A stretch of DNA of 64,000 nt from a virus (Duplodnaviria > Heunggongvirae > Uroviricota > Caudoviricetes): positions 45,600 to 109,599 of the IMG/VR virus record IMGVR_UViG_3300020594_000001; one strand, written 5' to 3'. Shown piece by piece: positions 1-60,935 of this stretch (positions are counted from its first letter, which is position 1; each line of letters begins with the position of its first letter). A model generated the notes under the pieces. That model was not told where the DNA came from. It ran no database searches and worked only from the letters and a program-made list of their open reading frames with translations. Both the position numbers and the translations under genes were made by a program.

Positions 1-116
1 GCGCAGGTTCAACGATTGCAGCGCGGTGCATGGTAAGAGTAGGGCTTTTGATTTGAAGCGCGGTAGCGCTCGATTTAGCGATTGCAGCGCTGAAATTGAA
101 GTTAAGCTTTTGCATG
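1..116 (-). CDS. hypothetical protein; only the N-terminal 38 codons are in the window
   Basis: ATG at 114..116 follows the conserved AGGTAAACATC leader. The N-terminus MQKLNFNFSAAIAK resembles the start of the 190..849 product, so the two may be paralogs. Confidence 0.4.
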
Positions 117-189
117 ATGTTTACCTTGTCGTTTTTGGTTTGTGTGTCGGGTTAGGTAGCGGGTTAGCTGCCCGCTACCTGATGCATGC

Positions 190-849
190 TTAGTTACCTG
201 CCCAGATATCGAACGTTGCATCGCTTGCGCTTTCGATCATGGCAATGAGCGCCCGTGTCGCGGGTGAATCGATAATTTCAGGGGTTTCGCCCTTGCGTGC
301 CATGGTTCCCGTGATACCCAGTGCGGGCAAGATACCGCCCTTGCTGTATGCCACGCTGATTTGCGTCGGGGCAGTTGCGGGGCTCATGTGTTCGCCCCCA
401 TTCAAAGCCCTAACCAGTGAAGTAGCGCGTTCAATAGCGGGCAAGTCATACCCGTTGCCCACAGCGGTTGAATGGGCTTTACGGGTAAGCCCTTGAAATA
501 TGCCCGCACGGTTTTTGGCATGGCACAGCGTGACTGCAAACGCCAGCAAAGCGCATTTAGCTGAGCCCTTAAGGTATGCAGCATCGCCCGACGTCATGAA
601 ACCGAGAAACTGCGACACGCGCAAAACCTTTTTAACGTTTGTGCTGGTTTCAATGTCTTTGGCAAGGGCGTCAAAATCGATGTTAAGGGCTTTTGCAGCG
701 TCGAATTGAGCGCCCGAGAAACCTTCGAGAACTTTGATACCGCGTTCGATATCTTGCTGCATGCCCTCAGCGTTGCGACGCACGTTATAAGCGGTGTTTG
801 CTTTGATCGCTGCGTTAATCAGGGTTTTTTGTGCTTTGATGTTTTGCAT
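190..849 (-). CDS. hypothetical protein, 219 aa (start trimmed to MQNIKAQ)
   Basis: ORF track 190..933. The internal ATG at 849 is directly preceded by the conserved leader AAAGGTAAACACC. Confidence 0.5.
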   Translation of the reverse strand: MQNIKAQKTLINAAIKANTAYNVRRNAEGMQQDIERGIKVLEGFSGAQFDAAKALNIDFDALAKDIETSTNVKKVLRVSQFLGFMTSGDAAYLKGSAKCALLAFAVTLCHAKNRAGIFQGLTRKAHSTAVGNGYDLPAIERATSLVRALNGGEHMSPATAPTQISVAYSKGGILPALGITGTMARKGETPEIIDSPATRALIAMIESASDATFDIWAGN

Positions 850-912
850 GGTGTTTACCTTTGTGTGTAGTGGTTTGTGTGCTGGCTTTGTTTTGAGCCA
901 GTAATGACATTT

Positions 913-947
913 TAATGCAAACGTTTTTTTCAATGCAAACGTTTTTT
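913..947. repeat. tandem direct repeat 2 x AATGCAAACGTTTTTTT upstream of the 849 gene start
   Basis: Two adjacent 17-18 nt copies are visible in the sequence. Each contains the self-complementary core AAACGTTT. Confidence 0.6.
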
Positions 948-1145
948 TAGTGTTTTAACGAAAAAACTTCAAATCTAGGGGTTTTCACTGATACCGGGGC
1001 GCTTTGCTTGCCCGGGCATGCTTGACCCTACGGGGCGCGGTCAGGACGCGCTTTCCCGCCCCGCTGAGCGGTCTAGGATGGGCTCGCCCCGGTGCGGCCC
1101 GGTCGGGCGTGGCGGGGTGCTGCGCCTAAACCGATGACCAGGGTT

Positions 1146-1207
1146 GTCGCCGAACATGCTGACCAGCGAAATGGCCGAATACGTGACCGTTTGGCGAGCC
1201 GAACACA
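1146..1207. repeat. cluster A of GCCGAACA(C/T)(G/A) repeats, 3 copies
   Basis: GCCGAACATG (1149), GCCGAATACG (1174) and GCCGAACACA (1198) match a second cluster at 3279..3377. Confidence 0.55.
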
Positions 1208-1587
1208 AAATGCATTTGGGATCAGGTCGGCGCTAGGCTCATCAACTCGTGGGATAAAAAATAGGCCCGTCAGCGCTTCAGAACTTCAAAGCGCTTCGGG
1301 GCCATAAGGAGGCTCACATCATGCCAATGTGATCGGACAGACATCTTCATTCGGGGGGCAGTTTCTCTTCATGCCCCAGGAAGTTGGAGTCTTCAGCACT
1401 TACCGCTTGCGCCCTTCGCGTTTTGGGTCAGTAGCGCGGGGCAAGCAGCGAATCGAAGAAACCGAAGTATGTGCGCCCGGGGCAGGATGCGCCCTTTCCC
1501 GCCCGTGGCTGCGTTTAAATGGGTCGGTCCATACCCTCATGACCCTGGAGGGTCTAAAACGCGTGGCGGGCGGGGAAAATGCAGGGC

Positions 1588-1707
1588 CTAGCGAAGTTGG
1601 CGAGCGATGCGTTTGTTGTAGGCACGCTCGCGCAGCAACCGCTGCGATCGGATCATCGTCACCTCAGCGTGCTCTTGCATAATTTCGAATCGTTCAATGG
1701 TCGTCAT
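1588..1707 (-). CDS. small hypothetical protein, 39 aa (MTTIERFEIMQEHAEV...)
   Basis: ATG at 1705..1707 is preceded by a GGAAG Shine-Dalgarno. It falls below the 60-aa ORF-track cutoff. Confidence 0.35.
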   Translation of the reverse strand: MTTIERFEIMQEHAEVTMIRSQRLLRERAYNKRIARQLR

Positions 1708-2233
1708 GGTGGGCTTCCTTTCACTTTGGAGTGAGTCATAAAAATTGAAGCTTGAGTGTCAGTTGTTACGGTAGGCACGCCAAACCCCTGTCAACCCCCG
1801 GGGTGGTGCTAGGTCGGTTTGCCTGAACCTGATCGACCGCAACCTCTTCGCTTTGCTGACCCTTGAAAGACCCTAAGACAAAAGACCCCTCGGGCGCGCG
1901 TGCGCGTTATATATATAAAGGAACTTATTTTTAAGAATTAGAAAGTTGTATATATAGAGGGGAAGCCAAAATCGTGCTAAGTCTGAATTTAGAACGCCTA
2001 CAACTTAGAAAATAATGCTGCGGCACAACGACTTACGTTAATTTTTACTAAGAAAGGAGGCGCGGCAAAGGAGCGCCGCTCTTAACCCTTTAAAAGCACT
2101 AAGGATGAAGCCTGCGGGAGTGAAACTGAGTGCGGCTTTTTCTTTTAAAGCACTAAGAGTTGCTTTTCTGGTCCTAAAGGCGGTCCTAAGCTCGCGGGAA
2201 AAGAAAAGCCCCTTTTCAGAGGCTTAGTTCTTT

Positions 2234-2470
2234 TTAATTGGTAAGGAGCTCGTCTGTCACCAACACCAAGTCCATCCAAGGACGCGTTGCGTCAGACTTG
2301 ACCATGAGTTGGTAGTCGAGTTGTTTACCGTCCTGGTAAAACTGGGTGAAATCGTGGTGGTCATCCGCTTCGATGGTGATGATGCGCCCATTGGGTAATT
2401 CCACTCGCAGGTTGTCGCCGGTCTGCATTTTGAGGGTGGTGGTGCCGTTGTTGTGTTCGAAGTAGCGCAT
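2234..2470 (-). CDS. hypothetical protein, 78 aa
   Basis: ATG at 2468..2470 with GGAGA Shine-Dalgarno; start trimmed from ORF 2234..2650. Confidence 0.45.
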   Translation of the reverse strand: MRYFEHNNGTTTLKMQTGDNLRVELPNGRIITIEADDHHDFTQFYQDGKQLDYQLMVKSDATRPWMDLVLVTDELLTN

Positions 2471-2481
2471 GATTGTTCTCC

Positions 2482-2583
2482 TTACCAGGGTTTGCCATGA
2501 ACCAGGGCGTGCAAAAGGATCGTCCCGCACGTCATGACTGCGATGCCGATAACGGTGAAGGCAATCAGTTTCAGGTTTTGCAT
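2482..2583 (-). CDS. small hydrophobic membrane peptide, 33 aa (MQNLKLIAFTVIGIAVMTCGTILLHALVHGKPW)
   Basis: ATG at 2581..2583. The product is a single predicted transmembrane helix. It lies between two minus-strand genes. Confidence 0.4.
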   Translation of the reverse strand: MQNLKLIAFTVIGIAVMTCGTILLHALVHGKPW

Positions 2584-2906
2584 GAGGCCACCCCTTGGTG
2601 AAAAGGCATCGGGGCGATAAACCCAATCTGGAACCCCACCCGCTCAGCATGCGTTAACGCAGCCCACTGCTGCGGACTCATCTGGAACGCTTCGCAAATT
2701 GCATCGACCAGATCAGCGTCACCCAACAACCGCCCGAACTCCAGGCAGATCAAATCACCCTCCACCAGCTTGCTGGGCCAGTAATCGTGCTTACGATCAA
2801 ATGCTAGGAGCTCTTCAACCGCTCGGTCATACGCGGGGTTGTTCAAGTCATAGTCTTTGGTGAAGGCGAGAACCCTCTGCGCGATCACCTTTCGTTGTGC
2901 TTGCAT
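2571..2906 (-). CDS. hypothetical protein, 111 aa
   Basis: Start at 2906 is preceded by the conserved leader ...CACACAAGGTAAACATCATG. Confidence 0.55.
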   Translation of the reverse strand: MQAQRKVIAQRVLAFTKDYDLNNPAYDRAVEELLAFDRKHDYWPSKLVEGDLICLEFGRLLGDADLVDAICEAFQMSPQQWAALTHAERVGFQIGFIAPMPFHQGVASCKT

Positions 2907-2966
2907 GATGTTTACCTTGTGTGCTGTCGTTATGAGGTGTCATCATGAGCGCCCAAAAGAGGCACT

Positions 2967-3097
2967 TTTCCCACTTTCGTTTCTTTACCCCCGGTTTTTC
3001 GGATACTTTTCTAAAAAATTTCCCACTTGAAGCGCCTAAATCCGATAGATATTGGGCGATCTTTCCCACTTTGCTAGGCGCGCAAAACCCACTTTTG
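2967..3097. repeat. four direct iteron-like repeats TTTCCCACTT(T/G)
   Basis: Copies at 2967, 3018, 3062 and 3086 lie inside a 1.1-kb non-coding region. Confidence 0.6.
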
Positions 3098-3278
3098 GGG
3101 CTAAAACGGGGTTTTCGGGGTGTAGGCGGGTCAAACCGAGGGGGGTTCGATTGCCTAAAGAGGGAGATAGGCCCGAGCACCAGGACAGGACGCCCAGCCC
3201 GTTAGGCAGTCTCTGGCGGTTGATACGCCTACACCTCTATACACGCGCAAAGGGGGCCTAATCGCTTACCAGGGATCT

Positions 3279-3377
3279 GGCCGAACACGTAGGCTGGGGG
3301 TGAGCCGAACATGAAAAAGGCTTATGGGCATTGGGGAAGGCGAGCCTTTCTATATACGGAAAGCTGGCCGAACACGA
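3279..3377. repeat. cluster B of GCCGAACA(C/T)G repeats, 3 copies
   Basis: GGCCGAACACG (3279), GAGCCGAACATG (3302) and GGCCGAACACG (3367). Confidence 0.55.
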
Positions 3378-4000
3378 AAGGAACTGGGCGCTAGGACGGC
3401 TTAGGCACGTTGACGTTTAAAGGCTTAGGAAGCGGAAAAATCTCTTATACGTCCGGTTATTGTTGTCATACGTCTGGTCCTATATCCGGTTATGTGGTTG
3501 CTTGTATATTCGGTTTATATGGTGTGTTTAAGCATCCTCTGTTTGTGTTGTTGATGAACCTCTCTATGGATTCCTTTCTCTATTCATTAACCGTCTCTTC
3601 TTTCTATCTGTTGTAGCTGTCGATATTGTTGTTGCTGGTCTTATCCGCACACTTTCTCTTTTCGTCATACGTTCTTTTTGGATTCGAGCTCGCCTGGTCA
3701 GTCTCTGTCTTCTCTTTCCCTCACGTCGAAATAGATTCGTTTTGCTTTGGTTGCTTTGCTTGAATCGCGCTTGCTTGCGCTTTTGGCGATCGACCTATGC
3801 CAGGGTATCGGTTTTGCTGAAAATCGCTTGTAGCGCGTTTAATCGGTTCTCTCGATACAATCGCGGGCGAAATTGCGGGGTTGCCTATGCTTGAAAAACC
3901 CCTTTAAAATCAATAGCTTACAATACGAGATTAACCCTTGCAAAAAAGACCCTTAAAATCAATGGGTTACGAGGGGTTTTCCTATAGGCTTTGCGGGCAT

Positions 4001-4030
4001 AAAAAAGACCCCACCTGTGAGGGGGTGGGG
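4001..4030 (-). terminator. rho-independent terminator for minus-strand transcription
   Basis: On the minus strand the hairpin CCCCACCC..GGGTGGGG is followed by TCTTTTTTAT. It closes the tmRNA-containing transcription unit. Confidence 0.6.
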
Positions 4031-4227
4031 CCGTGAAGAGTCTGTTTCCAGACTTAGGTAAACACCGATGCAAAGCGGTGTCTGGGTGAGGATAGCACAG
4101 CAGCTTTCGCTATAGGCTGATGGTTGCGCAAGGGCCTAGGGTTCCCTTCCGTTGTTCGGTCCCGCATAGTAGCCCGGGCGGGTTTGCAGCCCTTTGTCCC
4201 GGCGTTGCTTTCTGCTAAGAGGCAACC

Positions 4228-4314
4228 ATCATGTCTGCCAACGAGAAGGAATCGAACCTTCGCCTTCGACCTCGCGAGTCGTTGCTCTACCAAACGCGCA
4301 TCGTTGGCAGACAT
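4228..4314 (-). other. tRNA-like element, a degenerate cloverleaf with anticodon GCG (Arg-like), enclosed in a 16-bp inverted repeat
   Basis: On the minus strand: acceptor GCCAACG/CGTTGGC, D-arm GCGC-GTTTGGTA-GAGC, anticodon loop TCGCGAG, T-arm GAAGG-TTCGATT-CCTTC. Defects are C at position 33, one extra nt before the 3' acceptor strand, and no encoded CCA. The stem is extended by ATCATGTCT/AGACATGAT. Confidence 0.4.
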
Positions 4315-4595
4315 GATGATCCTGGTCTTTCTCTTCGCCAGGGCAGAAGCTGATGGTGTCGCACGCTCTACATCAGGGAGGGCCTACGCCATCACCCGGT
4401 ATCGGTCCAACCGCCAGCGGTCGGTGCGAAACTCCGTCAGGTTTTCACCTTCACCATCATGAAAAAGAGCGGTCCTCACCCTTGCACGTCTGGCGCACGT
4501 CCGGCCTTTCGTAATACTCGCCAGCAGGGTTGATACGGTTTTGAACGGGCCGCGCTCTTTCATGATGGCCCCGGGCATTCCCGGGGAACCTTTAC

Positions 4596-4925
4596 TTAGC
4601 AGTATTGTTCCTCTAATTCTTCAGCGAGTTTGGTTGCGCCTTCCAGCAGCGGTTCAAGCGAAACGTGATAATCAGCGATGACGTCGAAGCCGTCGTTGCC
4701 GTAAACGAGATAGACGGTAGCGCCGGGGTCTTTGTCATCTTGGTGGACGATCAAGGTGTCCTCGCAGGTGAGTCCGATGGCCGCCATAATGTCAGCGACA
4801 TTGCGTGAACGCTTGAGCGCGTATGCCTCGCCATCAAAGACCGATATGCTACGACCCGCAGCGATGACGTCTTGGGCGAGTTTTCGAACGATCTTGCGCT
4901 CGATTTGTTCGGTAGTCGGTGACAT
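4596..4925 (-). CDS. hypothetical protein, 109 aa
   Basis: ATG at 4923..4925; trimmed from ORF 4596..5111. Confidence 0.45.
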   Translation of the reverse strand: MSPTTEQIERKIVRKLAQDVIAAGRSISVFDGEAYALKRSRNVADIMAAIGLTCEDTLIVHQDDKDPGATVYLVYGNDGFDVIADYHVSLEPLLEGATKLAEELEEQYC

Positions 4926-4959
4926 GATTGTTTGCCCGTTGTTTGTTGATATGGCTCTA

Positions 4960-5220
4960 TCATGCGCCCGCAGATGAGGATGCGACATCGCGCAACAGCG
5001 CCTTGAATTGCTCTTCAGACAGAGGCTCTCCCGACAGCTCGCCCGGCTCAATGGTTGAATCCATGTAAGACCATCCGTTCCACCAGTCAGCGACATACCA
5101 TTTCGTTCCATCGCCGGGAACCGACCTGTCTAGCTTCACGAGCTCGCCATGCACGTTGCGGAAGATCATGCCCTCTTCGAGCTCGTATCGGCGCTCATAC
5201 CAGTCAATTTCCTTGCTCAT
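4960..5220 (-). CDS. hypothetical protein, 86 aa
   Basis: A strong AGGGGGAA Shine-Dalgarno lies immediately 3' of the tmRNA coding piece. Confidence 0.5.
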   Translation of the reverse strand: MSKEIDWYERRYELEEGMIFRNVHGELVKLDRSVPGDGTKWYVADWWNGWSYMDSTIEPGELSGEPLSEEQFKALLRDVASSSAGA

Positions 5221-5221
5221 G

Positions 5222-5662
5222 TGCTTCCCCCTACGTTGCGCTTCAATGATGGCCCCCGGCTTCTGTTGCCACCTGCCGGGGAAGGCCGTTACCGCTTAAG
5301 CAGCGGCACGGATGTAGTCGTCGTTGGCGTCTACAAGTTTTGCTTGGTTTATACGGCTCCGCTTGCCGAGTAGTTCGATTCGCTTCAGTATGTCTGTCGA
5401 AACCATGTCAGCCCCATCAGGAATTCCCTCGCCACTTTCGTCGGAGCAACCCGACTACTTGCTTCACTCACCAGTCCGTCGTTATGCGCACTTACGATAG
5501 GACTCGTGGGCCGTCTTGCCCCTCTATGGGCAGTCACGGAGGGAATTCCTGGTGGAGCTGGCGGGAGTCGAACCCGCGTCCAGACACCATTCACTGCACG
5601 TCTCGCGCCCCCCTCCGGCTAGAGGAAGTCGCACACTACCATCATCGAAGCGGGCCGGGCTT
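5222..5662 (-). ncRNA. ssrA: circularly permuted two-piece tmRNA gene: acceptor piece about 5550..5662, intervening hairpin 5416..5547, coding piece about 5222..5415
   Basis: The minus strand reads ...GGACGCGGGTTCGACTCCCGCCAGCTCCACCA (T-arm, acceptor 3' strand, CCA), ending at 5550. The tRNA-like 5' end GGGGCTGACATGGTTTCGACAG starts at 5415, after the CCA. A tag frame GCC AAC GAC GAC TAC ATC CGT GCC GCT GCT TAA (ANDDYIRAAA) lies at 5296..5328. A 14-bp complement links the coding-piece 3' end to the acceptor-piece 5' end. Confidence 0.7.
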
Positions 5663-5966
5663 GATACCGGCTTGTGCGTTATTTTGTTTTCGGGGTGGCC
5701 TGCCCCTCAAGCTAAAGGCTCGTATGCCTACGACACCACTGCACACAGTCTCGCGTTTCCTTCAACGCCGCCGCTTCGATGATGGTCCTGGTGCTTGACG
5801 TTTTCACAAGAGGCGCACCAGGAATACCCCTTGCTATGCTTCGGTTACATGACGGTCTCCGGTTCGTTCATTGTTCACCTTAAAGTTGTGTTGTCAGTAT
5901 AGGTATTGTGCGCTTTAGGTCTCGGAACGAACGCTCTTTACAACCACGGTGATCTGATTCTTCACG

Positions 5967-6508: not shown

Positions 6509-6528
6509 TACTGTATATTTAAACAGTA
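6509..6528 (+). promoter_or_regulatory. LexA (SOS) box, beta/gamma-proteobacterial type
   Basis: TACTGTATATTTAAACAGTA fits CTGT-N8-ACAG with palindromic flanks. It lies 11 bp upstream of the ATG at 6537. Confidence 0.6.
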
Positions 6529-6536
6529 TCAAGGCC

Positions 6537-6839
6537 ATGCCCAGATGCACTCTACAAACCTCCCACTCGTTCGGCCAACCCCGCATAGCGTGGTCTGCCC
6601 CGGTCGAGGTGCCTATCAAGCTGTCGACGCGAGAGCACGATAGGCTCAAGCGCGTCGTGTCATACCTGCATGTTCCCTACCAGGGCGACGGCAACCTAGA
6701 CGCCAGCCAGAAAATCGCTGCGCTGTATGAGCCTTACGTGCTTGCGTTCAACTCTGACAAAAGCATCGTCTTTGGTGGGTTCGAGGAAATCACCGGCTCA
6801 CGCTTCTACCAAAGCTGGCTTGTGAAATGGCTCGACTAG
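6537..6839 (+). CDS. hypothetical protein, 100 aa, plus-strand, probably SOS-regulated
   Basis: One of very few plus-strand genes. A LexA box overlaps its promoter and RBS region. Confidence 0.5.
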   Translation: MPRCTLQTSHSFGQPRIAWSAPVEVPIKLSTREHDRLKRVVSYLHVPYQGDGNLDASQKIAALYEPYVLAFNSDKSIVFGGFEEITGSRFYQSWLVKWLD

Positions 6840-39553: not shown

Positions 39554-39572
39554 GTATTCCTCAGTAAGAAAC

Positions 39573-39613
39573 GGGGCGTCATACGCCCCTTTATAGTGAG
39601 TGCTTACTTACGT
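39573..39613 (-). promoter_or_regulatory. phage motif (AAGTAAGCACTCACTATAAAGG) followed by hairpin GGGGCGTATGACGCCCC
   Basis: It lies between the nrdA stop and the next gene. The motif-plus-hairpin arrangement recurs at 43098..43140. Confidence 0.5.
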
Positions 39614-39614
39614 T

Positions 39615-47517: not shown

Positions 47518-47559
47518 TGTGGTTCGCCCGTTGTTTTGGTTAGTTATAGTGTCCCGCGA

Positions 47560-48033: not shown

Positions 48034-48036
48034 GCC

Positions 48037-51987: not shown

Positions 51988-52758
51988 CTAGGCTGCGCGC
52001 TGACGCATCGCTTCCATGATTGCCTCTTTCTGCGCCTTCAGTTCGAGCACTCGCACCTGCCCTTCTTTCTCTTTGCGGCGATCGCGCGCCACTTCAAGCA
52101 GCATGTCTTTGCGCTGATCCATGGCGCGCTCAGCGATATCGGCCAGTTTCCAGATGCTGTGCGCGTCGATCAGCTTTTGCTGCGCTGCAGCGTAGCGCGG
52201 GTCGGAGGTTACTTGGCTTTTCAGCTGGGCTTCGGTAGTCTTCTTGCCCTCGTCGTTCGCCTTGTTGCGGTAGTGCGCGTCCAGCTGTGCCTCAAGAATC
52301 TCGACCTGGCTCTTAACCCGGTCATACTGGCGACGCGCATTGACCGTCTGCTCTGCATAGTGCACGTAGAGGGCGGCGTGCTTGATCATGTCGTTGTCCA
52401 GGTCTGTCGGGCTGATCGCTACGTCCCGCTTAAGCTCGCTGGCATCGACGTAGGATTTCAGAGCGGTGCCATCCTTCTGCTCGACAGCTTTGCCGGTGTG
52501 GATGGTGGGCTCTTCAGCAGTTGCCTTTTCCCGCTCTTGCTGGGCAGCAAGTTTGGCTTTCTCCTGCAGCAGTTCCTCTTCGCGCTCTCGGGCTTTCACC
52601 TCTGCAGCAACTTCGAGCGCTTTCGCGTCTTCTGCCGGAGGCACTTCGACTGCCGCAGCCGTGGGCGTTTCCGCAGTGGTGTCGCTGCCCTTTATATGGG
52701 CGTCAACGCTGGACAGAAATTCGTCCAGTTCCATGTCAATATCCAGATTCTCGCTCAT
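51988..52758 (-). CDS. acidic coiled-coil protein, 256 aa
   Basis: Glu/Lys/Ala-rich heptad-like sequence. Confidence 0.4.
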   Translation of the reverse strand: MSENLDIDMELDEFLSSVDAHIKGSDTTAETPTAAAVEVPPAEDAKALEVAAEVKAREREEELLQEKAKLAAQQEREKATAEEPTIHTGKAVEQKDGTALKSYVDASELKRDVAISPTDLDNDMIKHAALYVHYAEQTVNARRQYDRVKSQVEILEAQLDAHYRNKANDEGKKTTEAQLKSQVTSDPRYAAAQQKLIDAHSIWKLADIAERAMDQRKDMLLEVARDRRKEKEGQVRVLELKAQKEAIMEAMRQRAA

Positions 52759-55700: not shown

Positions 55701-56135
55701 CGTTGTGACAATCACGTCTTCAAGCGCCAGCACCTGTGAAAGCTCGGTGCGGGCATGGTAGTAAAACTGGTCAGCGCTGTTTGCCTTAGACAGCAAGCCC
55801 ATCAGCGACCGCAAACCCGTCTCGGTCTTTACGTAAACCTTGATTTGAAAAGAGTGGTTTCGAACCTCAACCGCGCCCTCTTTCTTCTTTTGCTGAGCGG
55901 TGGGCGGGCGATAAGTTGCGCTGTCATATACACGAAGCGTGCACCCAAGAACAGGGGTAATGTCGTGCTTCTTGCAAGCAGACGAGAATGCGGGCAAGCC
56001 CGATATCGTCATGGTGTCTGTGAGCGCGATCGATTTGAAGCCCAACTCTTTGGCGCGCTCAACCATCGGCACCACCTGCAAGATTGACTCCCCGACAGAG
56101 TGATCAGACCGAACAGACAGTGCATGTTGTAACAC
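52767..56135 (-). CDS. dnaE: DNA polymerase III alpha subunit (DnaE-type)
   Basis: N-terminal PHP domain and the palm region GPGRGSAAGSLVSYLLGITDLDPIRFGLLFERFINPDR; 1122 aa. Confidence 0.85.
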   Translation of the reverse strand: MLQHALSVRSDHSVGESILQVVPMVERAKELGFKSIALTDTMTISGLPAFSSACKKHDITPVLGCTLRVYDSATYRPPTAQQKKKEGAVEVRNHSFQIKVYVKTETGLRSLMGLLSKANSADQFYYHARTELSQVLALEDVIVTTGDLFCLFHHPKAGEIVQALSEKHPLYIEITPVQSMLFDTLNRKALACARSRGLPLIAGYPRFYASSDQAASHDVLRAITSSGTYTMGSPQLPVPATRDWCFDDPKELATRMISTARRIGMNGDEVKQSFASMDQIVEQCFYRFEKMPASLPHMAEDAFKTLLERCKEGWVKRFGSEVLGHKPAPEDMQRYKERLAYELGVLRRLGFSNYFLLVQEIVGWSKAQDVIVGPGRGSAAGSLVSYLLGITDLDPIRFGLLFERFINPDRIDLPDVDMDFMSSRRGEVVEYIVGRFGRAKVAGISNYSTLGSASSLRDVSRVHGLKPYEYSCSKQMEKEHGVSLPLEESAASVPDIAKFKAEHPVIWNHATTLEGNMRNLGQHAAGVIVAHDDINTRAVVMQRQEGALPVVNWDKSVVEDFGLVKMDILGLSTLDVLAHARRYIKERHHKTINLLALPLDDRKVLEAFGRGDTVGVFQFSGSGMRKLLKDLAVLEPLTFEDIAAATALFRPGPIDAGLMDQYIAVKQGKKLPSYISPLVEPALRETFGVTVYQEQVSRIAVDLCGFTGAEADGLRKAIGKKDKDKMATMGQQFIDGAVASGMSELDAQALWNDIEGFAAYCFNKSHAFAYTLISYQMMWLKVYYPAEFYAASMSVVDDDDKLAPIMMDAKTHGIDVLPPDINKSSDTITIDGERTLYAPFQAIKGISVNVAAKILEVRAAQGKPFESFDQFEEVAKSTVAGKINVRHKEVLRKVGAFASLGDGLPALHPDRLKDRLELMPGYTVDAVKADRGLNADRIAQLKIAEIIGEMRVCDGCSLSGGQHPTPSMGKKPRFMMVFDSPNWKEAQDGKMLSGDVGDAVRAALKDAGLSPNDGYYTSLVKSVKPKEQKVLSTEQINGCSKYLAREIEILKPAVIVAMGGNAIRYFAPSTKGNPTELVGKTIFDPALDASIVFGMNPSTIYFDASKIKLLQQTCAQIAELTN

Positions 56136-56145: not shown

Positions 56146-56772
56146 TTATGATTCGTTGTGGTAATACAGCTTTGTAGTATTGCTATCGATGCGAGGATTG
56201 AGCGTCATCAAGCCCGCAGCGTCTTCGACGCCTATCCCAAGCTCTTTGAAAACGCGCCAGATCAATGACGCCTGGACCGACGCTGAGCTCGATGCCCAGC
56301 CTAGGGCAGATTGGAGCGCTGCCTTCGCTTGTGCCTTGGAAACAGGAACACGGTTGGACAGCAGCAGATACATCGTGCTGGCGGTGCGTTGGCTGTCATT
56401 TGGGAATGGGTTCTCGCCATTGGCAAGCGCCTGGGCAATGAAAGTCTCTTTCCTGAACATTGCCCGCATCATCTTGCCCACCGCTGCAGGAACGCTGTCG
56501 ATCAGCGCTTTCTGTGTGGGCGTCGGTGCCCAGCGCGCGCGGGTCGCCCGCTCGACTTTCACCTCAAGAGGTCTGGGCTGCGCAACGCGTTCGACCGGGT
56601 CATTAACCGCGACCATTGTGCTGAAGGTCAGAATGAGCTCTGGATCGCCAATCCTCGATAGGACGGTGCGAGACACCGACACACACGCATTTGCGCTGGC
56701 GCATGTGTTGCATTTGGGCGACCGCACGCTAAACACGCTGGGAATGCCAAAGCACCCCGGTTGCCTAAGCAT
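56146..56772 (-). CDS. hypothetical protein with N-terminal Cys cluster; candidate anti-sigma partner
   Basis: Cys cluster CFG...KCNTCASANAC. It overlaps the sigma factor stop by 8 nt, suggesting translational coupling. Confidence 0.3.
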   Translation of the reverse strand: MLRQPGCFGIPSVFSVRSPKCNTCASANACVSVSRTVLSRIGDPELILTFSTMVAVNDPVERVAQPRPLEVKVERATRARWAPTPTQKALIDSVPAAVGKMMRAMFRKETFIAQALANGENPFPNDSQRTASTMYLLLSNRVPVSKAQAKAALQSALGWASSSASVQASLIWRVFKELGIGVEDAAGLMTLNPRIDSNTTKLYYHNES

Positions 56773-57448
56773 GAATCTTCACCCCCAACACGGTGTCGAA
56801 CTCCTGCGCGATGCCGCGCATTTGCTCGCGGGAATAGCCTAGGTAACGCCCGATAAGACGAACCGACAGCTTTTCGCTCGGATTGCGACGCTTAGCGCCA
56901 CCCGCAATGTGCTTGTGAATGGCAGCGAGATATTCTTCGTGCGCGTCCATAACCGCCTGGGTCGGGGCCATGATTTCACGAATGATGCGCCGGGCCTCTG
57001 CCGATAGGCACCTAATTCGCTCTGAAATTTCGACGCTACGCACTGCCAACTGCTCGACGCTCAGCGTGGTGTCGGCCAGGTATTGCTCGGGGGAAAACTC
57101 GTCTTCGTCGTCCTCCCCAGACATTTCGCTAAAAAGCATCACCCCATGCAGGGCTCGCTCTTCGATGCGCTTGTTGACATAGCGGTTCACGTTGTTAAGC
57201 ACCGCCCGCCCCATGTAAGCGCTGAATGTGATGCCCAGGCCAGGCTTATAGGTGCGCAGTGCCTCAGCGTAAGAAAGACACGCCTCTTGGAACAAGTCTT
57301 CGTATTGAATGTTGGTCTTTGTCGCAAGAACCCGCGTGTGGATGGTCCTGGCGAGCTTGTGGATTAAGCCTTTCTGGGCTTCGAAGCTGGTGTCAAAACC
57401 ACGCCCCACCCCGGGGCGTGATCCTGATTGTTGAAGTTGAGTGCTCAT
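56765..57448 (-). CDS. sigma-70 family RNA polymerase sigma factor (regions 2 and 4)
   Basis: Region 2-like EDLFQEACLSYAEALRTYKPGLGITFSAYMGRAVLNNV and a C-terminal HTH LSVRLIGRYLGYSREQMRGIAQ. Confidence 0.5.
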   Translation of the reverse strand: MSTQLQQSGSRPGVGRGFDTSFEAQKGLIHKLARTIHTRVLATKTNIQYEDLFQEACLSYAEALRTYKPGLGITFSAYMGRAVLNNVNRYVNKRIEERALHGVMLFSEMSGEDDEDEFSPEQYLADTTLSVEQLAVRSVEISERIRCLSAEARRIIREIMAPTQAVMDAHEEYLAAIHKHIAGGAKRRNPSEKLSVRLIGRYLGYSREQMRGIAQEFDTVLGVKIHA

Positions 57449-57465: not shown

Positions 57466-58629
57466 TTAGCCAAAAATGCGCGCAGCGACAGCGTCGACAG
57501 CTTCCTTATCCACGCGGGACAGTTTGTTGGCAAAGCAGACCGCGAGTCCTGCGCGGTAGCTACCCTTCATGAGACCGATACGCGATGCTGCGATCAGCGT
57601 GCGCGGGCTAATCGGGGCGCTGATCTTTGCGCCTTCGAACTGCTCGCGAACCCGGTTAGCGAAATCGACCATCTTCTTGGCGTCCGCCAGGGCGATGCCG
57701 CCCTGCTTGACCAGAATCTGCTCTTCGCGATCGGGGGCCATATACTTCATTTCCAGCACCATATGGAAACGGTCGTAGTTGGCGGCGTTCTGGATATTGG
57801 TGCCCTGATACAGCCCGGTTTCGTCGCCCGAGCCGTTGGTGTTGCCGGTCGCCACGAAGCGAAAGTTCGGGTGTGGGCGAATGATCCGGTTGGCAGCGTC
57901 CGCCTCTTTGATGACCAGGGGCTTTCCCTCAAGCACGGGCTGATACACTGCCAGCACCGATGGCAACGCGAAATCGTATTCGTCTGCCAGATACACCCAG
58001 CCGTTTTTCATGGCTACCGCCAAGGGGCCAAGCTCGAAGATTGTTTCGCCAGCGCGAGCGGTCCATTGGCCGACGATATGGGATTCTTCGGTGTTCAAGG
58101 TATGCTGAACACGAATCAGCGGTCGCTGGGTGCGGGCCGCGACTTGCTCGACCGCTGCAGTCTTGCCTACGCCCGCGTGGCCCCACGAATAGAGGGGGAT
58201 GCCAATTTCGAACGCCATCAGCATGTTGCGCAGCGTTTCGTTGTCGAACACGTAGTTCTTGTCGATGTCCGGTATCATTTCTGCGTCGTCGCCTCGATCG
58301 AAGACGGTGACAGGAATGGGCTCGCCGCGCTTGTTCAGAGCAGTCTTGTCGTCGCCCAGGTCAAACAGCACATGCATGGGCTGGCGGGTTACACCGCCCA
58401 CACTGGTCGTCATTTCCGTAACGGTGCTGGCCGCGCCCTCTTCCTTTGTCGCCCCGTCTTTAAGCGCTTGGCGACGTGCAATCTCTTCTTGCGCCTCACT
58501 GCTGAGCAATTCAGCGCCCGGGTAGGTGTCTTTGTATTCCTGCAGTGAGACCTCGGGATGCTCCTTCCTCAAGTGCGCCGAAATGACGTGGACCTTGGCA
58601 CCACAGATTTTGCAATCGATTTGAGACAT
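57466..58629 (-). CDS. MoxR/CobS-like AAA+ ATPase with N-terminal zinc ribbon
   Basis: Walker A GHAGVGKTAA and Walker B WVYLADE; N-terminal CKICG...H..H. Confidence 0.6.
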   Translation of the reverse strand: MSQIDCKICGAKVHVISAHLRKEHPEVSLQEYKDTYPGAELLSSEAQEEIARRQALKDGATKEEGAASTVTEMTTSVGGVTRQPMHVLFDLGDDKTALNKRGEPIPVTVFDRGDDAEMIPDIDKNYVFDNETLRNMLMAFEIGIPLYSWGHAGVGKTAAVEQVAARTQRPLIRVQHTLNTEESHIVGQWTARAGETIFELGPLAVAMKNGWVYLADEYDFALPSVLAVYQPVLEGKPLVIKEADAANRIIRPHPNFRFVATGNTNGSGDETGLYQGTNIQNAANYDRFHMVLEMKYMAPDREEQILVKQGGIALADAKKMVDFANRVREQFEGAKISAPISPRTLIAASRIGLMKGSYRAGLAVCFANKLSRVDKEAVDAVAARIFG

Positions 58630-58754
58630 GTTTGCTCCGTAAAAATAGCGTGAGCGCTCACTTACAATCTTTCTTATAGTAAACGCTTACTTCAAGACGT
58701 GGATATTATGCAGCAAAACCGAATTTGGAGATAGTGCTTACTCCAAATATTGGG

Positions 58755-60683
58755 CTAATTTTTCACAAGCAGCTTTTTGATTTCCCGTATCACTGTCCCG
58801 GGGAGGTCACTAACGTTATTTAACGTCACGCACTTCGGATAGTATTTCTTGGGGTCGCTGGTCTGAATGCCGATGCCCAAGACCTCGATTCCACCCTTCT
58901 CTGCATCCTTGACGGCACCCTTGAGGTGGGCGTGTAAAAGACCACTGTCATGGGCGCATGCGGGCTTGCCATCAGAAAGAACCATCAGTATCTTTCGTTT
59001 CTCGCGGCGCTGCGATAAGCGGGTTGCCGCAATCTGCACGCACTCGCCATCGACGTTATTGCGCAACAGTCCGTGCTGGTAAGAACGGTTGCCCAGATAA
59101 GCCAGCCGGTTCTTCACTGTTGGCGTCACACGCTCGGCAAAACCCTTAATAATGGGCATATTCAACGCTTCATACCGCGCATACGTAACGCCCAAGCGTC
59201 GGGCTTCCGAATGGGCTTCAGCACTAAAATCCCGCCCCGTGCTGAAGCCCAACACCTCAGTCGAGATTCTTATTCGTTCCAGCACAGAAGCCAGCGCATA
59301 AGCGGTTTCCGAAGCAACTCGAATGCGGTTGTTAGACGTCATCGAGCCAGAGCAATCGATCAACAGCGTCACCGCGACATCGTTTGCGGTGTGTTCATGC
59401 TTGCGTCGAAACGCTCGCTCATCGTTGAACGAGGTCAGGCGCGCCAGAGCGGTGGCGTTGATGCGCCCTGAGCGATGGCCTGCAGTCCAGATTGACTTGC
59501 TCATAGAGGCAATGGCGCGCTCCAGGTCTTTTTGCAGCGGACCCACCATATGGTCAACCCGATCCTGCATGTCTTTGACGCTCGCCTCGTGGAACTCGCC
59601 CGCATCAAGCGGCTCGATTTTGTCGTGATCGGTCGTCCACACTAGATACTTCGCATCACGCGCAGCGCGCGCGCTGACATTGCTCAGCACTTCGTCCAGC
59701 TTCTTATCAAAGCCTGAAAGCTCTGATGAGTCGGACAGTTTTTTCTTTGGCTTCTCTGACGGTTTTTCATCTTCGCCCGGCTTCTCGTCACCTTCAGAGC
59801 CTTCGTCGTCGTCGTCAGTGCTTTCGTCGCTTTCGTCAGAATCGTCGCTTTCGTCGCTTTCGTCAGAATCGTCAGAGTTGTCTTCCCCGTCCGTTGACTC
59901 CGCTTCTTCAGATTCCAAGTCTTCAGATTCCAAGTCTTCAGATTCCGGGGCCTCCTTTTCGCGCTCTTTCTCGCCACCCTTGGCAGATTTTTTCTTAGAC
60001 TTGTTGCCCTTGGCCGTCTTCTTGCTCTCGCTGGGCGAATCGCCATCAGCGTCGCCCTCTTCAGAGTCTTGATCGAGAAGCTTTGCTGCGTGCTTGGCTA
60101 CCCGTAAAGCATCGGCGCTGGAAGCGATCTTTGGAAGCTCGCGGGTCAAGTATTCGCCTACCTTGGACATCGGCTCTTCTACAATCGACCACTTGTCCTC
60201 CATGTAGTCTTTATAGATGGCCTGCCCCGCCAGCGCACGCACAGCAGGGACCATCACCGCCCCCACGACATCTTCGCCGCCTTCTGCAATTTTCTTGTCT
60301 GTATAGTTTTGCAGAAAGAAGCGACCGACGCTGGAAAGGTGATTTCCACTACCAGGGAATACCTCAGCCATCCTCCGCTCTACGAAGGTGTCTTCGATCA
60401 GGTTGTGTAAACCAGCAACACCCTGCTTACTGGCTTGATCAATAACGCTTACGTCTGAAAAGAGCGCGTGACCGACCTCATGGTCTAAGAACCCTTCGAT
60501 GGCATCCAAGAATTCTTGCGACGCGTCATCAGGGATATAGGGAATATTGATAAGCTCAATTTCCCCCGACCTTGTGTATTTTGTATATGCTTTACTACCT
60601 TGCTGCGTTACCTTTATTTTTTTCCGCGCCAGCATAGCCACTACCGCACTGACTTTTTCACGCACCAAGATAGATTTTTTCAT
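58755..60683 (-). CDS. CobT-like vWA-domain protein with long acidic Ser/Asp/Glu repeat linker
   Basis: C-terminal vWA MIDAS VTLLIDCSGSM, and a DSDESDESDDSDESDES / LESEDLESEDLESEE low-complexity region. Confidence 0.55.
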   Translation of the reverse strand: MKKSILVREKVSAVVAMLARKKIKVTQQGSKAYTKYTRSGEIELINIPYIPDDASQEFLDAIEGFLDHEVGHALFSDVSVIDQASKQGVAGLHNLIEDTFVERRMAEVFPGSGNHLSSVGRFFLQNYTDKKIAEGGEDVVGAVMVPAVRALAGQAIYKDYMEDKWSIVEEPMSKVGEYLTRELPKIASSADALRVAKHAAKLLDQDSEEGDADGDSPSESKKTAKGNKSKKKSAKGGEKEREKEAPESEDLESEDLESEEAESTDGEDNSDDSDESDESDDSDESDESTDDDDEGSEGDEKPGEDEKPSEKPKKKLSDSSELSGFDKKLDEVLSNVSARAARDAKYLVWTTDHDKIEPLDAGEFHEASVKDMQDRVDHMVGPLQKDLERAIASMSKSIWTAGHRSGRINATALARLTSFNDERAFRRKHEHTANDVAVTLLIDCSGSMTSNNRIRVASETAYALASVLERIRISTEVLGFSTGRDFSAEAHSEARRLGVTYARYEALNMPIIKGFAERVTPTVKNRLAYLGNRSYQHGLLRNNVDGECVQIAATRLSQRREKRKILMVLSDGKPACAHDSGLLHAHLKGAVKDAEKGGIEVLGIGIQTSDPKKYYPKCVTLNNVSDLPGTVIREIKKLLVKN

Positions 60684-60719
60684 TGTGAACTCAAAGCTTG
60701 ATTAACGAATAAACGTAGT

Positions 60720-60935
60720 CTATGAGTTAAGTGTAGGAACATCCCACTTACTAATAATGGCTGCAGAACCTAACGCGTCGAACATTACATAGAAGTCTTC
60801 GTTGGCGGCGGTTCGACACGGAACGAAGGCAGTGGAACCCGCATACACGGGTTGCCTGCTGCTGTCTTCGAACGCTTGAACAAACTCTGCCGCTACATCA
60901 TGGCTAACTGCTTGAATAAACACAAATGACTCCAA
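60720..60935 (-). CDS. hypothetical protein, 71 aa
   Basis: It is the last gene of the minus-strand array. A divergent motif pair lies upstream. Confidence 0.4.
   Translation of the reverse strand: MESFVFIQAVSHDVAAEFVQAFEDSSRQPVYAGSTAFVPCRTAANEDFYVMFDALGSAAIISKWDVPTLNS

Follow-up and report, generated by a model that had tools for sequence, protein, structure and literature searches.

The 64-kb stretch of viral DNA analysed here (the window) combines a long array of DNA-metabolism genes, including a DNA polymerase, with an integrase, which raises the question of what kind of element it represents. The original prediction considered a virion-forming temperate phage of well over 100 kb and, alternatively, a different integrative replicon such as a phage-plasmid or a large satellite. 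The reading favoured here, with a probability of roughly 0.88, is that the window covers the ~64 kb nearest the integrase in a ~109-kb prophage of the SSU5/RHEph10/RHph_N1_15/Nickievirus/ANB28/AB family (SSU5 being a Salmonella phage, RHEph10 and RHph_N1_15 Rhizobium phages), located at the 3' end of a tRNA-Val gene by hupB in a Castellaniella-like betaproteobacterium.

Composition of the co-directional array

Gene calling by codon-usage log-odds across the whole 64-kb window, using a training set of 14 homology-confirmed genes, retained 89 minus-strand and five plus-strand ORFs. Between 116 and 60935, minus-strand ORFs covered 87.7% of the sequence and only two plus-strand ORFs were present, a gene at 6537–6839 and a 62-aa ORF at 29569–29757, the latter overlapping a minus-strand ORF and therefore probably spurious; the remaining three were located at 61091–62412, between the array and the integrase. 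Public contigs of identical sequence, whose genes were called separately, show this strand layout too, and the prediction that every credible gene from 116 to 60935 lies on the minus strand, except for 6537–6839, was borne out, with one credible plus-strand gene inside. The predicted lack of capsid, portal, terminase and tail genes also held: head, tail, portal and terminase families had no matches among the ~70 window proteins scanned against Pfam or PHROGs, and 80 ORFs of the phage RHph_N1_15 (structural, lysis, and DnaB–ligase block) had no tblastn match in the window or in a Logan contig (L001) that extends it to the left. The array probably consists of several units as opposed to a single operon.

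The array runs leftward on the minus strand and its first large gene encodes a CobT-like VWA protein (58755–60683; PF11775, 6.3e-40), collinear with the CobT of RHph_N1_15, followed by a CobS/MoxR-like AAA+ ATPase (57466–58629; AAA_5 and CbbQ_C; 44% identity to RHph_N1_15 CobS) and a sigma-70-family factor (region 2; 56765–57448; PF04542, 1.7e-7) at the position of the RHph_N1_15 ‘RNA polymerase sigma-70 factor’. The DnaE-type polymerase (52767–56135; 1122 aa; Pfam PHP, DNA_pol3_alpha, finger, HHH_6, and UDG) carries a UDG domain at residues 971–1101; with a UDG-superfamily domain making up its last ~150 aa, the protein is not a canonical full-length DnaE. Downstream are a conserved family protein that is weakly UvsY-like (51988–52758; PF11056, E = 0.008, under the Pfam cut-off) and present in 51 of 60 IMG/VR loci, a gp32-like single-stranded DNA-binding protein (SSB; 51042–51890; PF08804, 4e-18), a 5'–3' exonuclease (FEN; 50060–50986; PF02739 and PF01367), a RecA/UvsX-like recombinase (48784–49791; PF00154, 9.6e-46), and the Pfam-assigned SbcD (46023–47105) and SbcC (43524–45491; 655 aa), each collinear with a ‘DNA repair exonuclease’ subunit gene of RHph_N1_15 and separated by a gene for a DUF3268 zinc-finger protein. 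A DnaQ-like RNase_T 3'–5' exonuclease (22149–22715, minus strand; PF00929, 4.7e-21) has 50% identity to the RHph_N1_15 ‘Pol III epsilon’. Judged from these assignments, the UDG-extended DnaE, DnaQ-like exonuclease, gp32-like SSB, RecA/UvsX-like recombinase, FEN, and SbcCD make up a self-sufficient, T4-style set for recombination-dependent replication.

A nucleotide-supply block (35791–41900, minus strand) consists of NrdA (39615–41900; 761 aa), a 71-aa ORF, an Acb2/Tad1-like protein (39076–39333), NrdB (38076–39071), a phage HU (37696–37995), ThyX (36851–37696), a MazG-like (PRA-PH) protein (36429–36851), and an AAA_28 NTPase, with NrdA, NrdB, HU, ThyX, and the MazG-like protein assigned through Pfam. 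Further along the same strand are an SPFH/prohibitin-family protein (31964–32821; PF01145, 2.2e-35; 42% identity to RHph_N1_15 prohibitin) and an RtcB RNA ligase (28168–29367; PF01139, 1.8e-127). Towards the left end, a phage-borne two-piece (permuted) tmRNA gene occurs at 5296–5612 on the minus strand (Rfam RF04321, 106 bits compared to a gathering score of 47; ARAGORN tmRNA*), with the tag peptide ANDDYIRAAA, and a tRNA-like element at 4237–4307 (Rfam tRNA, 36.6 bits), for which ARAGORN makes no call, sits inside an inverted repeat with an 18-bp perfect stem (4227–4318, minus strand; fold z = −4.5). The arm also carries genes for dNTP supply (NrdAB, ThyX, and MazG-like) and for a sigma-like factor, along with HU, RtcB, tmRNA, and an Acb2-like sponge as accessories. 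From the gene list originally proposed, DnaQ-like, FEN, RecA, SbcCD, RNR, ThyX, MazG-like, and HU genes were recovered with Pfam, but the polymerase is not of canonical full length and the ‘RuvC-like resolvase’ was not confirmed by Pfam or PHROGs profile searches.

This array is the conserved early DNA-metabolism arm of SSU5/RHEph10/Nickievirus-like siphoviruses, a family of ~100–120 kb with the structural genes on the other arm. The best isolated-phage matches to the DnaE are RHph_N1_15 and RHEph10 (MN988506 and NC_034248; siphoviruses of 115–117 kb, RHph_N1_15 at 116.7 kb), and tblastn of the window ORFs against RHph_N1_15 returned ~20 shared genes in order, from CobT (window 60683; RHph_N1_15 64.2 kb) to DnaQ (window 22149; RHph_N1_15 100 kb). 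The collinear genes include CobT, CobS, sigma, DnaE, SSB, FEN, RecA, SbcD, SbcC, and RNR, and, with minor rearrangements, the region of thymidylate synthase, NTPase, prohibitin, DnaQ, and RtcB; in both, the arm continues as dozens of small co-directional unknowns that end at a converging opposite-strand UvsW cluster. The two differ in that RHph_N1_15 possesses a RepC-type replication gene and a ParA-like gene without an integrase, while int, xis, and attL occupy the RepC position in the window; in ThyA, dUTPase, and rIIA/B compared to ThyX, MazG-like, HU, Acb2-like, and tmRNA genes; and in their hosts (Alphaproteobacteria compared to Betaproteobacteria).

ANB28 and SSU5 share this replication-arm order, as do up to 60 IMG/VR loci, of which many lie on 100–114-kb contigs. 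DnaE identity to the window was 43% for RHph_N1_15 (residues 2–1122), 40–41% over full length for the Pseudomonas Nickievirus (nickie, psageB1, and hairong; ~112 kb) and Stenotrophomonas ANB28 (108 kb), and 37–39% over full length for the SSU5 supergroup and the Acinetobacter AB group (SSU5, 37%), which are ~100–120-kb phage-plasmids (PMC7969092). The UDG-like extension is shared, as the alignments extend to residues 1119–1122 in RHph_N1_15, nickie, and SSU5. SSU5 and the AB group have the order helicase, primase, ligase, CobT, CobS, DnaE, SSB, FEN, and RecA and a TerL family in common with relatives, though SSU5 has no sigma gene at the equivalent position, the hosts are enterobacteria or Acinetobacter, and maintenance is as a plasmid (RepA, IncFIB) without the integrase-directed chromosomal insertion of the window element. 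Nickievirus and ANB28 share the layout of a morphogenesis arm, lysis genes, a DNA-processing arm (RecA and exonucleases), and many small unknowns, but psageB1 was reported to be lytic, without lysogeny genes (PMC8537276), unlike the window element, and in ANB28 the ligase side directly meets CobT, with neither an integrase nor a replicon cassette. Three hallmarks of the family were present in the element, namely the succession of CobT-like, CobS-like, DnaE, gp32-like SSB, FEN, RecA, SbcD, and SbcC followed by RNR and DnaQ-like genes, the UDG-extended DnaE, and an opposite-strand UvsW cluster converging on the arm end. With 1,441 phage records matching the window DnaE, the polymerase is a signature gene of the family, and its earlier portrayal as an oddity was too strong. 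The element therefore adds an integrative member to a known family; it is large, but its replicon type is not new.

Integration site and extent of the element

At the right end, a tyrosine integrase (62409–63506, minus strand; PF00589, 5.6e-19) adjoins an intact tRNA-Val(TAC) gene (63653–63728, minus strand; ARAGORN; Rfam tRNA, 73.3 bits), the integration target on the attL side, next to which a terminator hairpin with a 12-bp stem is located (63602–63632). Beyond it, in host DNA, is the 3' end of a hupB-like HU gene (63891–64000, with the gene tail itself at 63891–63998; minus strand; Pfam Bac_DNA_binding, 4.5e-14). An excisionase-like gene on the plus strand (62119–62412; phrog_2790 and phrog_66, ‘excisionase and transcriptional regulator’) completes the anticipated int/xis/tRNA junction with the host, an arrangement typical of an integrative temperate prophage. 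The closest integrases among isolated phages are those of temperate phages of Ralstonia and Pseudomonas with ~45-kb genomes (35–37% identity). A 78-nt probe (integrase-side flank and the first 32 nt of the tRNA 3' end) found no second copy at up to three mismatches, a search that a short att core would escape. As read from the sequence, the element appears to have been inserted by its tyrosine integrase at the tRNA-Val 3' end next to hupB, forming a chromosomal junction.

As predicted, the element continues past the left edge of the window. Contig L001 is 100% identical to window positions 1–5579 and runs 3.3 kb further left, where the coding strand flips ~3 kb from the window and an opposite-strand cluster converges on the array; its terminal ORF (76 aa visible) has 51% identity to the C-terminus of RHph_N1_15 UvsW, in the same orientation and relative position. 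Searches for the left-flank proteins returned no matches. The leftmost complete array gene (190–849, minus strand; 219 aa, function unassigned), used as an anchor on longer public contigs, also occurs on ENA contig k141_28451 (ERZ27256382; 109,537 bp), on which position 45,450 matches the first window position and 45.4 kb lie to the left, leaving room for a block like the 44.7-kb block of RHph_N1_15. Identical sequence is also present on two ~93.4-kb contigs (93,335 and 93,446 bp), and the identical-sequence contigs extend 29–45 kb further left. From the single 109,537-bp contig, the element size may be put at about 109 kb. The unseen left part (40.5 kb) is comparable to the RHph_N1_15 block, which spans ParB-like and TerL genes through the ligase; the element was not among the entries of the TerL homologue lists, its TerL being expected outside the window. 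By family synteny and contig size, the unseen ~40–45 kb would hold packaging, head, lambda-like tail, and lysis genes, DnaB, primase, and ligase, and then attR, expected at about −45 kb. The attP site would lie between ligase and CobT, so that on integration the integrase and replication arm would bound the prophage on one side and the ligase on the other. The prophage could be incomplete or defective in its unseen part.

The proposal of a virion-forming temperate phage of well over 100 kb is therefore supported by the family synteny, the 93,335-, 93,446-, and 109,537-bp contigs, and integrase-bearing relatives of 103–111 kb, while an ordinary-sized prophage, with attR within ~40 kb, would be contradicted by the 45.4-kb leftward reach of the 109.5-kb contig and by the genome sizes in the family. 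The suggestion of a phage-plasmid, large satellite, or other integrative replicon was not supported, given the collinear siphovirus replication arm and the chromosomal junction. The phage-plasmid association was nonetheless a reasonable lead, as the family includes bona fide and suspected phage-plasmids, SSU5 and the AB group among them (PMC7969092). An integrated phage-plasmid, with a plasmid replicon and partition system and alternating between episomal and integrated states like SSU5, the AB group, and RHEph10, would be in keeping with the RepC and ParA/ParB-like genes of RHph_N1_15 and with the ParB-like genes expected in the unseen left part, yet it is unlikely. In a database made up of the DnaE-clade loci and three MAG loci, tblastn queries with RHph RepC and SSU5 RepA gave no homologue, and no plasmid-initiator-like protein occurred among the window proteins scanned. 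Only one of eight L001 proteins (the UvsW fragment) matched RHph_N1_15, and none of the four at the position of the RHph ParA-like gene had a PHROG match. Moreover, the RepC spot is taken by int, xis, and attL, and the host junction is present in all six assemblies of identical sequence that reach the right end. Phage-plasmids are extrachromosomal and without integrase-directed insertion, whereas this element has an integrase, a xis-like gene, a tRNA-Val/hupB junction, and a GC shift.

A defective phage remnant or a giant island resembling a satellite, with a replication arm only, no virion genes, and dependence on a helper, would account for the absence of structural genes from the 64-kb window and the 3.3 kb to its left, but is very improbable: the leftward extension of the identical contigs (29–45 kb) is as long as the block that the family has and the window lacks, a deletion-type break in synteny is absent at the UvsW cluster, long reading frames are uninterrupted (DnaE 1122 aa, NrdA 761 aa, and SbcC 655 aa) at a coding density of 88%, and the integrase-bearing relatives measure 103–111 kb, at least one of them with TerL. 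Satellites (PICI, P4-like, cf-PICI, and similar) are ~10–20 kb, have neither a replisome nor virion genes of their own, and exploit a helper, whereas here phage-family DNA runs uninterrupted for at least 68 kb, encodes a complete replisome, and continues on contigs of 93–110 kb. The chance that the window derives from a free, non-integrated phage genome carrying its own tRNA-Val and HU gene fragment beside int is slighter still. There are precedents in a 106-kb viral contig (L056) whose interior contains ligase, tRNA-Cys, int, and CobT, and in the tRNA-Asn of SSU5 at the same spot, and the element does carry its own HU gene, though one just 36% identical to the host HU fragment. GC content rises from 54.5% in the element to 62.5% right of the tRNA, and the HU fragment has 92% nucleotide identity to the chromosomal hupB flank of a Castellaniella MAG (locus L265), compared to 65–77% for the phage genes; in L265, on a 704-kb contig, housekeeping genes precede hupB.

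Putative regulatory sites along the array

Between the array and the excisionase-like gene of the proposed prophage, two rightward genes (61112–62073, plus strand; 102 and 209 aa, called on the identical ENA contig) are candidate lysogeny-control genes, with a match to phrog_4693 (unknown function) and no match in Pfam. They are separated from the array by a divergent control region (60936–61111) with back-to-back palindromic sites (61006–61022 and 61029–61045) and facing sigma-70-like promoter matches, and L265 has a palindromic site at the equivalent position. A further palindrome/promoter site is located just upstream of the excisionase-like gene (62075–62091). A palindrome of 14 bp, AGTAAG-N2-CTTACT, joined directly to a TATA-like element, occurs at 14 sites in the window (22 matches observed, 0.11 expected), all in or beside intergenic gaps with the exception of 31097–31113. 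The ATA extension points along the downstream gene at most sites, and the palindrome positions are kept in L265. With array units each headed by the same palindrome, a phage regulator probably binds there and would coordinate the arm, though the palindromes could alternatively be activator sites or promoters for the phage sigma factor.

A perfect LexA box (6509–6528; feature 6509–6839, plus strand) is located 8 nt (9 bp from the ACAGT core) upstream of the plus-strand gene 6537–6839, whose 100-aa product had no Pfam or PHROGs family match. ACTGT-N8-ACAGT occurs once in the window, with 0 occurrences expected by chance. The gene is a candidate SOS-controlled antirepressor, through which induction is probably linked to the SOS response; this role, like that of the palindromes as operators, is putative.

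Integrase-bearing relatives

The Castellaniella sp. MAG prophage L265 (NZ_JAUCCV010000002.1) occupies an identical hupB–tRNA-Val site, with the order SpoU methylase, Cys/Met PLP enzyme, HU, tRNA-Val, int, CobT, and DnaE. Protein identities to the window are 60% for the integrase, 74% for DnaE, and 82% for RecA, and it is a different phage species (65–77% nucleotide identity). An integrase between ligase and CobT was also found by homology in seven IMG/VR relatives, two of which (L005 and L056) were confirmed with PF00589, and in a Paraburkholderia MAG, beside tRNA-Cys. A literature search found no description of the Castellaniella, Paraburkholderia, or IMG/VR integrase-bearing relatives.

The balance tips slightly towards these relatives and the prophage being an undescribed integrase-directed branch of the SSU5/AB/RHEph10 family, in which the lysogeny-maintenance cassette is exchangeable at a fixed spot between ligase and CobT and the early arm is under lineage-specific, dispersed palindromic operators. 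If so, that spot would hold RepC in Rhizobium phages and int with attP/tRNA in phages of Burkholderiales, and would be empty in lytic members, which would contradict the recent view of the chromosomal relatives of phage-plasmids as rare integrase-less accidents (PMC12977533). The tRNA genes differ among the integrase-bearing members, with tRNA-Cys as the target or tRNA-Met carried, compared to tRNA-Val here; a further IMG/VR contig of 103,480 bp consists of tRNA-Met, CobT, DnaE (7 kb), TerL (63 kb), ligase (100 kb), and a PF00589 integrase (101.5 kb).

Strand, gene content and family of the array

Gene calls based on codon-usage log-odds, trained on 14 homology-confirmed genes of the window, retained 89 ORFs on the minus strand and five on the plus strand, with the minus-strand ORFs covering 87.7% of the array (116–60935). 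Three of the plus-strand ORFs occur at 61091–62412, between the array and the integrase, a fourth, probably spurious, ORF (29569–29757) overlaps one on the minus strand, and only 6537–6839 is a credible plus-strand gene inside the array. With consistent gene calls on identical public contigs, these counts bear out the co-directional array of the original prediction. Its description of the array as devoid of capsid, portal, terminase and tail genes also held, with no match to these families among the ~70 window proteins scanned. Further, RHph_N1_15 (hereafter RHph), a complete Rhizobium phage (116.7 kb), served as the reference for gene order, and the 80 ORFs taken from its structural, lysis and DnaB-ligase block returned no tblastn match in the window.

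Nearly all of the functions read from the sequence were recovered by Pfam, including an RNase_T/DnaQ-like exonuclease (22149–22715), FEN (50060–50986), RecA (48784–49791), SbcD (46023–47105), SbcC (43524–45491), NrdA (39615–41900), NrdB (38076–39071), ThyX (36851–37696), a MazG-like protein (36429–36851), and the element’s own HU (37696–37995). DnaE (52767–56135) was likewise identified by Pfam, but is not the full-length Pol III alpha first described, as its last ~150 residues are a UDG-superfamily domain (52767–53222; DnaE residues ~971–1101) that replaces the usual C-terminal region. Neither Pfam nor PHROGs supported the proposed RuvC-like resolvase for the candidate ORFs at 47116–48730 and 45437–45922, which instead correspond to a cell-wall hydrolase, a DUF3268 zinc-finger protein, and unknowns. 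Flanked by the recA-side genes and sbcD, the hydrolase (47116–47517; Hydrolase_2, phrog_938 endolysin-like) lies within the recombination block, far from the position of the family’s lysis genes. Between nrdA and nrdB, an 85-aa protein (39076–39333) has an Acb2/Tad1 hairpin domain (Pfam, 1.1e-18) and is likely a cyclic-nucleotide sponge directed against CBASS or Thoeris.

Homology shows that the arm encodes a self-contained replisome and recombination machinery resembling the logic of T4, with a polymerase and separate DnaQ-like proofreader, a gp32-like SSB, a RecA/UvsX-like recombinase, FEN, UvsW, SbcCD (analogous to T4 gp46/47), and possibly a UvsY-like protein, a weak assignment (E = 0.008). 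For dNTP supply, the arm encodes ThyX, the MazG-like protein, an NTPase, and a class I RNR that has an ATP-cone, and homology also reveals a sigma-like factor and a set of accessories (HU, SPFH, RtcB, a tmRNA, the Acb2/Tad1-like sponge, and the cell-wall hydrolase).

A megablast search of window positions 40–60 kb against phages found no close isolated relative, its only match being 50 bp within the gene for the CobS-like protein in SSU5-like phages of Klebsiella. DnaE also lacks a close isolated relative, and its best full-length matches were all in phages of 103–122 kb: the Rhizobium phages RHph and RHEph10 (43% identity), Pseudomonas nickie, hairong, and phiK7B1 (40–41%), Stenotrophomonas ANB28 (40%), and the SSU5-like phage-plasmids of Klebsiella, Escherichia, and Salmonella (37–39%). 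Sixty IMG/VR loci matched DnaE, many on contigs of 100–114 kb. The DnaE-UDG fusion is kept across the family, with alignments to RHph, nickie, and SSU5 running to the C-terminal end.

Comparing all window ORFs with the full RHph annotation revealed a collinear span from 60.7 kb down to 22 kb in the window and from 64 kb up to 104 kb in RHph. The matches occur in the order CobT-like, CobS-like, sigma factor, a conserved 208-aa protein, DnaE, a conserved protein, SSB, FEN, RecA, SbcD, SbcC, a conserved protein, RNR, NTPase, and prohibitin, followed by the DnaQ-like exonuclease and RtcB. The same arm in RHph is co-directional over ~54 kb and, as in the window, tails off in dozens of small unknown genes. 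Its other arm (21–50 kb) carries TerL, portal, capsid, tape measure, and the lambda-like tail genes M, L, K, I, and J, after which come lysis genes, PhoH, DnaB, primase, and ligase, and ANB28 and SSU5 have the same gene order. By this collinearity, the 60-kb co-directional DnaE array is the signature architecture and hallmark of an already known, very large family of phages, and the suspicion of a different kind of integrative replicon is not supported. A search with the family TerL found 5,019 clusters (90% identity) at E ≤ 1e-50 among 8,000 candidates scored, and none of the 120 matches listed lay on a contig of the lengths known to carry this element (109,537 or 93,4xx bp). How SSU5, the AB group, RHEph10, and Nickie are related has been published (PMC7969092). 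With its collinear arm, DnaE-UDG fusion, and convergent UvsW cluster, the element is a new species-level member of this SSU5/RHEph10/Nickievirus-like family.

Left flank and integration junction

To the left, a Logan contig (L001) identical to window positions 1–5579 (100%) runs 3.3 kb past the edge into genes on the opposite strand that converge on the array. Its last ORF, which is truncated, matches the C-terminus of the RHph UvsW helicase at 51% identity, and RHph has the same convergent arrangement. A homologue search with this 76-aa UvsW fragment recovered only fragments (≤81% identity; top match, 70%), and a 249-aa left-flank protein had no relative in scans of genome and metagenome contigs. 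IMG/VR scans with UvsW and with TerL (a single sequence and an alignment) returned other branches of the family in place of the integrase-bearing contigs, with the exception of one 103-kb contig. The 249-aa protein is among four consecutive proteins (134, 148, 79, and 249 aa; contig positions 6455–8287, ~0.9–2.7 kb left of the window) that have no family match and share a C-terminal tail, ...(Y/W/F)GTW*, suggesting a possible partner-binding motif.

A 219-aa protein (190–849) was found on three long contigs: ENA k141_101577 (93,446 bp), JGI 3300017553 Ga0182744_1000107 (93,335 bp), and ENA ERZ27256382 k141_28451 (109,537 bp). By coordinate arithmetic, position 1 of the window is position 45,450 of k141_28451, the right end of which falls 88 nt past the window, inside hupB. 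From the UvsW gene to the left end of this contig is ~40.5 kb, a stretch known by length only, and the RHph counterpart block, which starts with the ParB-like gene and TerL and runs through ligase and RepC, measures 44.7 kb. Counted from attL, the whole would be at most ~109.1 kb, inside the size range of the family. The tmRNA and tRNA-like genes at 4.2–5.6 kb were considered as host genes marking the left end of the element and rejected, because phage-family genes and identical contigs extend further left.

At the right, the int/xis/tRNA junction proposed from the sequence was confirmed, with a tyrosine integrase (62409–63506; PF00589), an excisionase-like gene (62119–62412), the only tRNA-Val of the window (TAC; 63653–63728, minus strand), and the 3' end (36 codons) of a host HU gene (63891–63998). 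The flank right of the tRNA has a GC content of 62.5%, compared to 54.5% for the element. On a 704-kb contig of a Castellaniella sp. MAG (NZ_JAUCCV010000002.1), a SpoU methylase, a Cys/Met PLP enzyme, HU, and tRNA-Val are followed by the integrase of a related prophage (60% identical; AAA ATPase, 69%; sigma, 51%; DnaE, 74%; RecA, 82%), then by CobT and further genes in the order of the window. The hupB of this MAG is 92% identical to the window fragment at the nucleotide level and the phage genes 65–77%, the pattern expected if a conserved host gene adjoins a diverged prophage.

A Paraburkholderia MAG has the order tRNA-Gly, tRNA-Gly, tRNA-Cys, integrase, CobT. Seven IMG/VR relatives possess an integrase homologue between ligase and CobT, two of which (L005 and L056) were confirmed as PF00589, and in L056 the integrase is located in the interior of a 106-kb contig, preceded by ligase, guanylate kinase, and tRNA-Cys and followed by CobT. 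An additional contig of 103,480 bp has tRNA-Met at 0.5 kb, CobT at 2.5 kb, DnaE at 7.3 kb, TerL at 62.8 kb, ligase at 99.8 kb, and a PF00589 integrase at 101.5 kb. This shared position of int places attP between ligase and CobT, and integration would leave ligase at one end of the prophage and int with the replication arm at the opposite end. In RHph, a RepC-type replication gene occupies the interval between ligase and CobT, which is empty in ANB28 and contains a tRNA-Asn in SSU5. The integrase itself is ordinary, its nearest isolated-phage relatives (35–37%) belonging to ~45-kb temperate phages of Ralstonia, Pseudomonas, and Burkholderia. Two independent ENA assemblies stop 88 and 102 nt past the window edge, inside hupB (~64000–64102), and a third, from JGI, stops ~8 nt short of it; such ends could arise from heterogeneity among strains or lysogens, or from a coverage step where the prophage stops.

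An integrated phage-plasmid has a low probability. Homologues of RepC and RepA were absent from the relatives compared, and the UvsW fragment was the only match between the L001 proteins and RHph. Insertion in the chromosome by an integrase departs from one defining feature of phage-plasmids. A remnant without structural genes, or a giant satellite, would agree with the gene content of the window but is unlikely, given that the identical contigs extend by the expected length, the window’s genes are intact, and similarly organised relatives are complete. The GC step at the tRNA and the chromosomal setting of the Castellaniella locus contradict the idea of a free phage genome that only happens to include a tRNA and part of an HU gene.

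As an integrated prophage, the element, together with its MAG and IMG/VR relatives, represents an integrative branch of the family, for which no description was found in the literature searched. Chromosomal relatives of phage-plasmids have been treated as rare and integrase-less (PMC12977533), and only P1-like cases discussed (PMC10879196). What had been suspected to be a new replicon type is a recognisable one, of modest interest as a family branch: in addition to lytic phages and plasmid-prophages, the family has integrative, tRNA-targeting members in the Burkholderiales, knowledge that can serve classifiers of prophages and phage-plasmids (geNomad, tyPPing) and the study of lifestyle-module swaps. 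Integrated prophages of ~110 kb are close to the upper size range and add a full replisome, RNR, tmRNA, RtcB, and an Acb2-like anti-defence gene to the host chromosome.

Dispersed palindromes and a LexA box

A 17-nt motif, AGTAAGCRCTYACTATA, consisting of a 14-bp palindrome (AGTAAG-N2-CTTACT) and a TATA-like extension (ATA), had 22 matches at 14 sites (13466–62091), compared to 0.11 expected. With one exception (31097–31113), the sites lie in or beside intergenic gaps (e.g., 27309–27325, 32944–32960, 39592–39608, 61006–61045, and 62075–62091), mostly ≤~70 nt upstream of a start codon, and at most of them the ATA extension points along the downstream gene. Two sites are back to back in the divergent region (60936–61111) between the array and the rightward genes. 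The Castellaniella prophage has sites at equivalent positions, and other family members have dispersed palindromes of their own (TCAATATTGA in RHph, AGTCAAAACTGACT in the Paraburkholderia prophage, and CACTACAGTG in SSU5).

This pattern suggests that the arm would be transcribed as several units, not as a single operon, and that the palindromes could be promoter-overlapping operators through which a phage regulator controls the arm coordinately, analogous to the dispersed C1 operators of phage P1. Activator sites, or promoters for the phage sigma factor, are possible alternatives. The HTH candidates at 23110–23607 and 61112–62073 might bind AGTAAGCGCTTACT. Scans of the window for sigma-70 promoters and terminators found no excess over the shuffled expectation.

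The LexA box of beta- and gammaproteobacteria is CTGT-N8-ACAG. A perfect box, TACTGTATATTTAAACAGTA, occurs as a single copy in the window (6509–6528), 8 nt upstream of 6537–6839 (100 aa, no family match), and because this unique box precedes the array’s one credible plus-strand gene, the gene product is suggested to be an SOS-controlled antirepressor. The dispersed palindrome and the LexA-box gene offer testable handles on the silencing, then induction, of a large early arm.

RNA genes and non-coding stretches

A two-piece (permuted) tmRNA gene is located inside the prophage (5240–5653, core ~5296–5612, minus strand), scoring 106 bits on RF04321 and 54 bits on the betaproteobacterial model (gathering score, 84), with the tag ANDDYIRAAA and a 133-nt insertion in the tRNA-like domain. 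Phage tmRNAs are already known from 79 unique sequences (PMC11915505). Three further structured RNA elements occur on the minus strand (4227–4318, 4454–4568, and 5638–5786), with fold z-scores of -2.6 to -4.5. Each of these elements, and the tmRNA, is closed by long stems of repeated CCAUCAUG/CAUGAUGG-type arms, which may be processing stems that free the ncRNAs from a long transcript. One element holds a degenerate tRNA-like sequence in an 18-bp perfect stem (Rfam, 36.6 bits), with C at position 33 and missed by ARAGORN.

Two non-coding stretches of unusual length close to the array’s end (850–2233 and 2907–4053) contain repeated GCCGAACA-bearing segments (1158–1231 and 3264–3400), a T-rich tract (3400–3800), tandem 28-nt repeats (3894–3970), and strong minus-strand terminators (4007–4032 and 2206–2225), and are possibly an origin or a regulatory RNA region. 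On the minus strand, three genes have almost the same translation-start region, ACAAGGTAAACAYCATGCAA (110–129, 844–863, and 2901–2920), and AGGTAAACA was found again in several other intergenic gaps.
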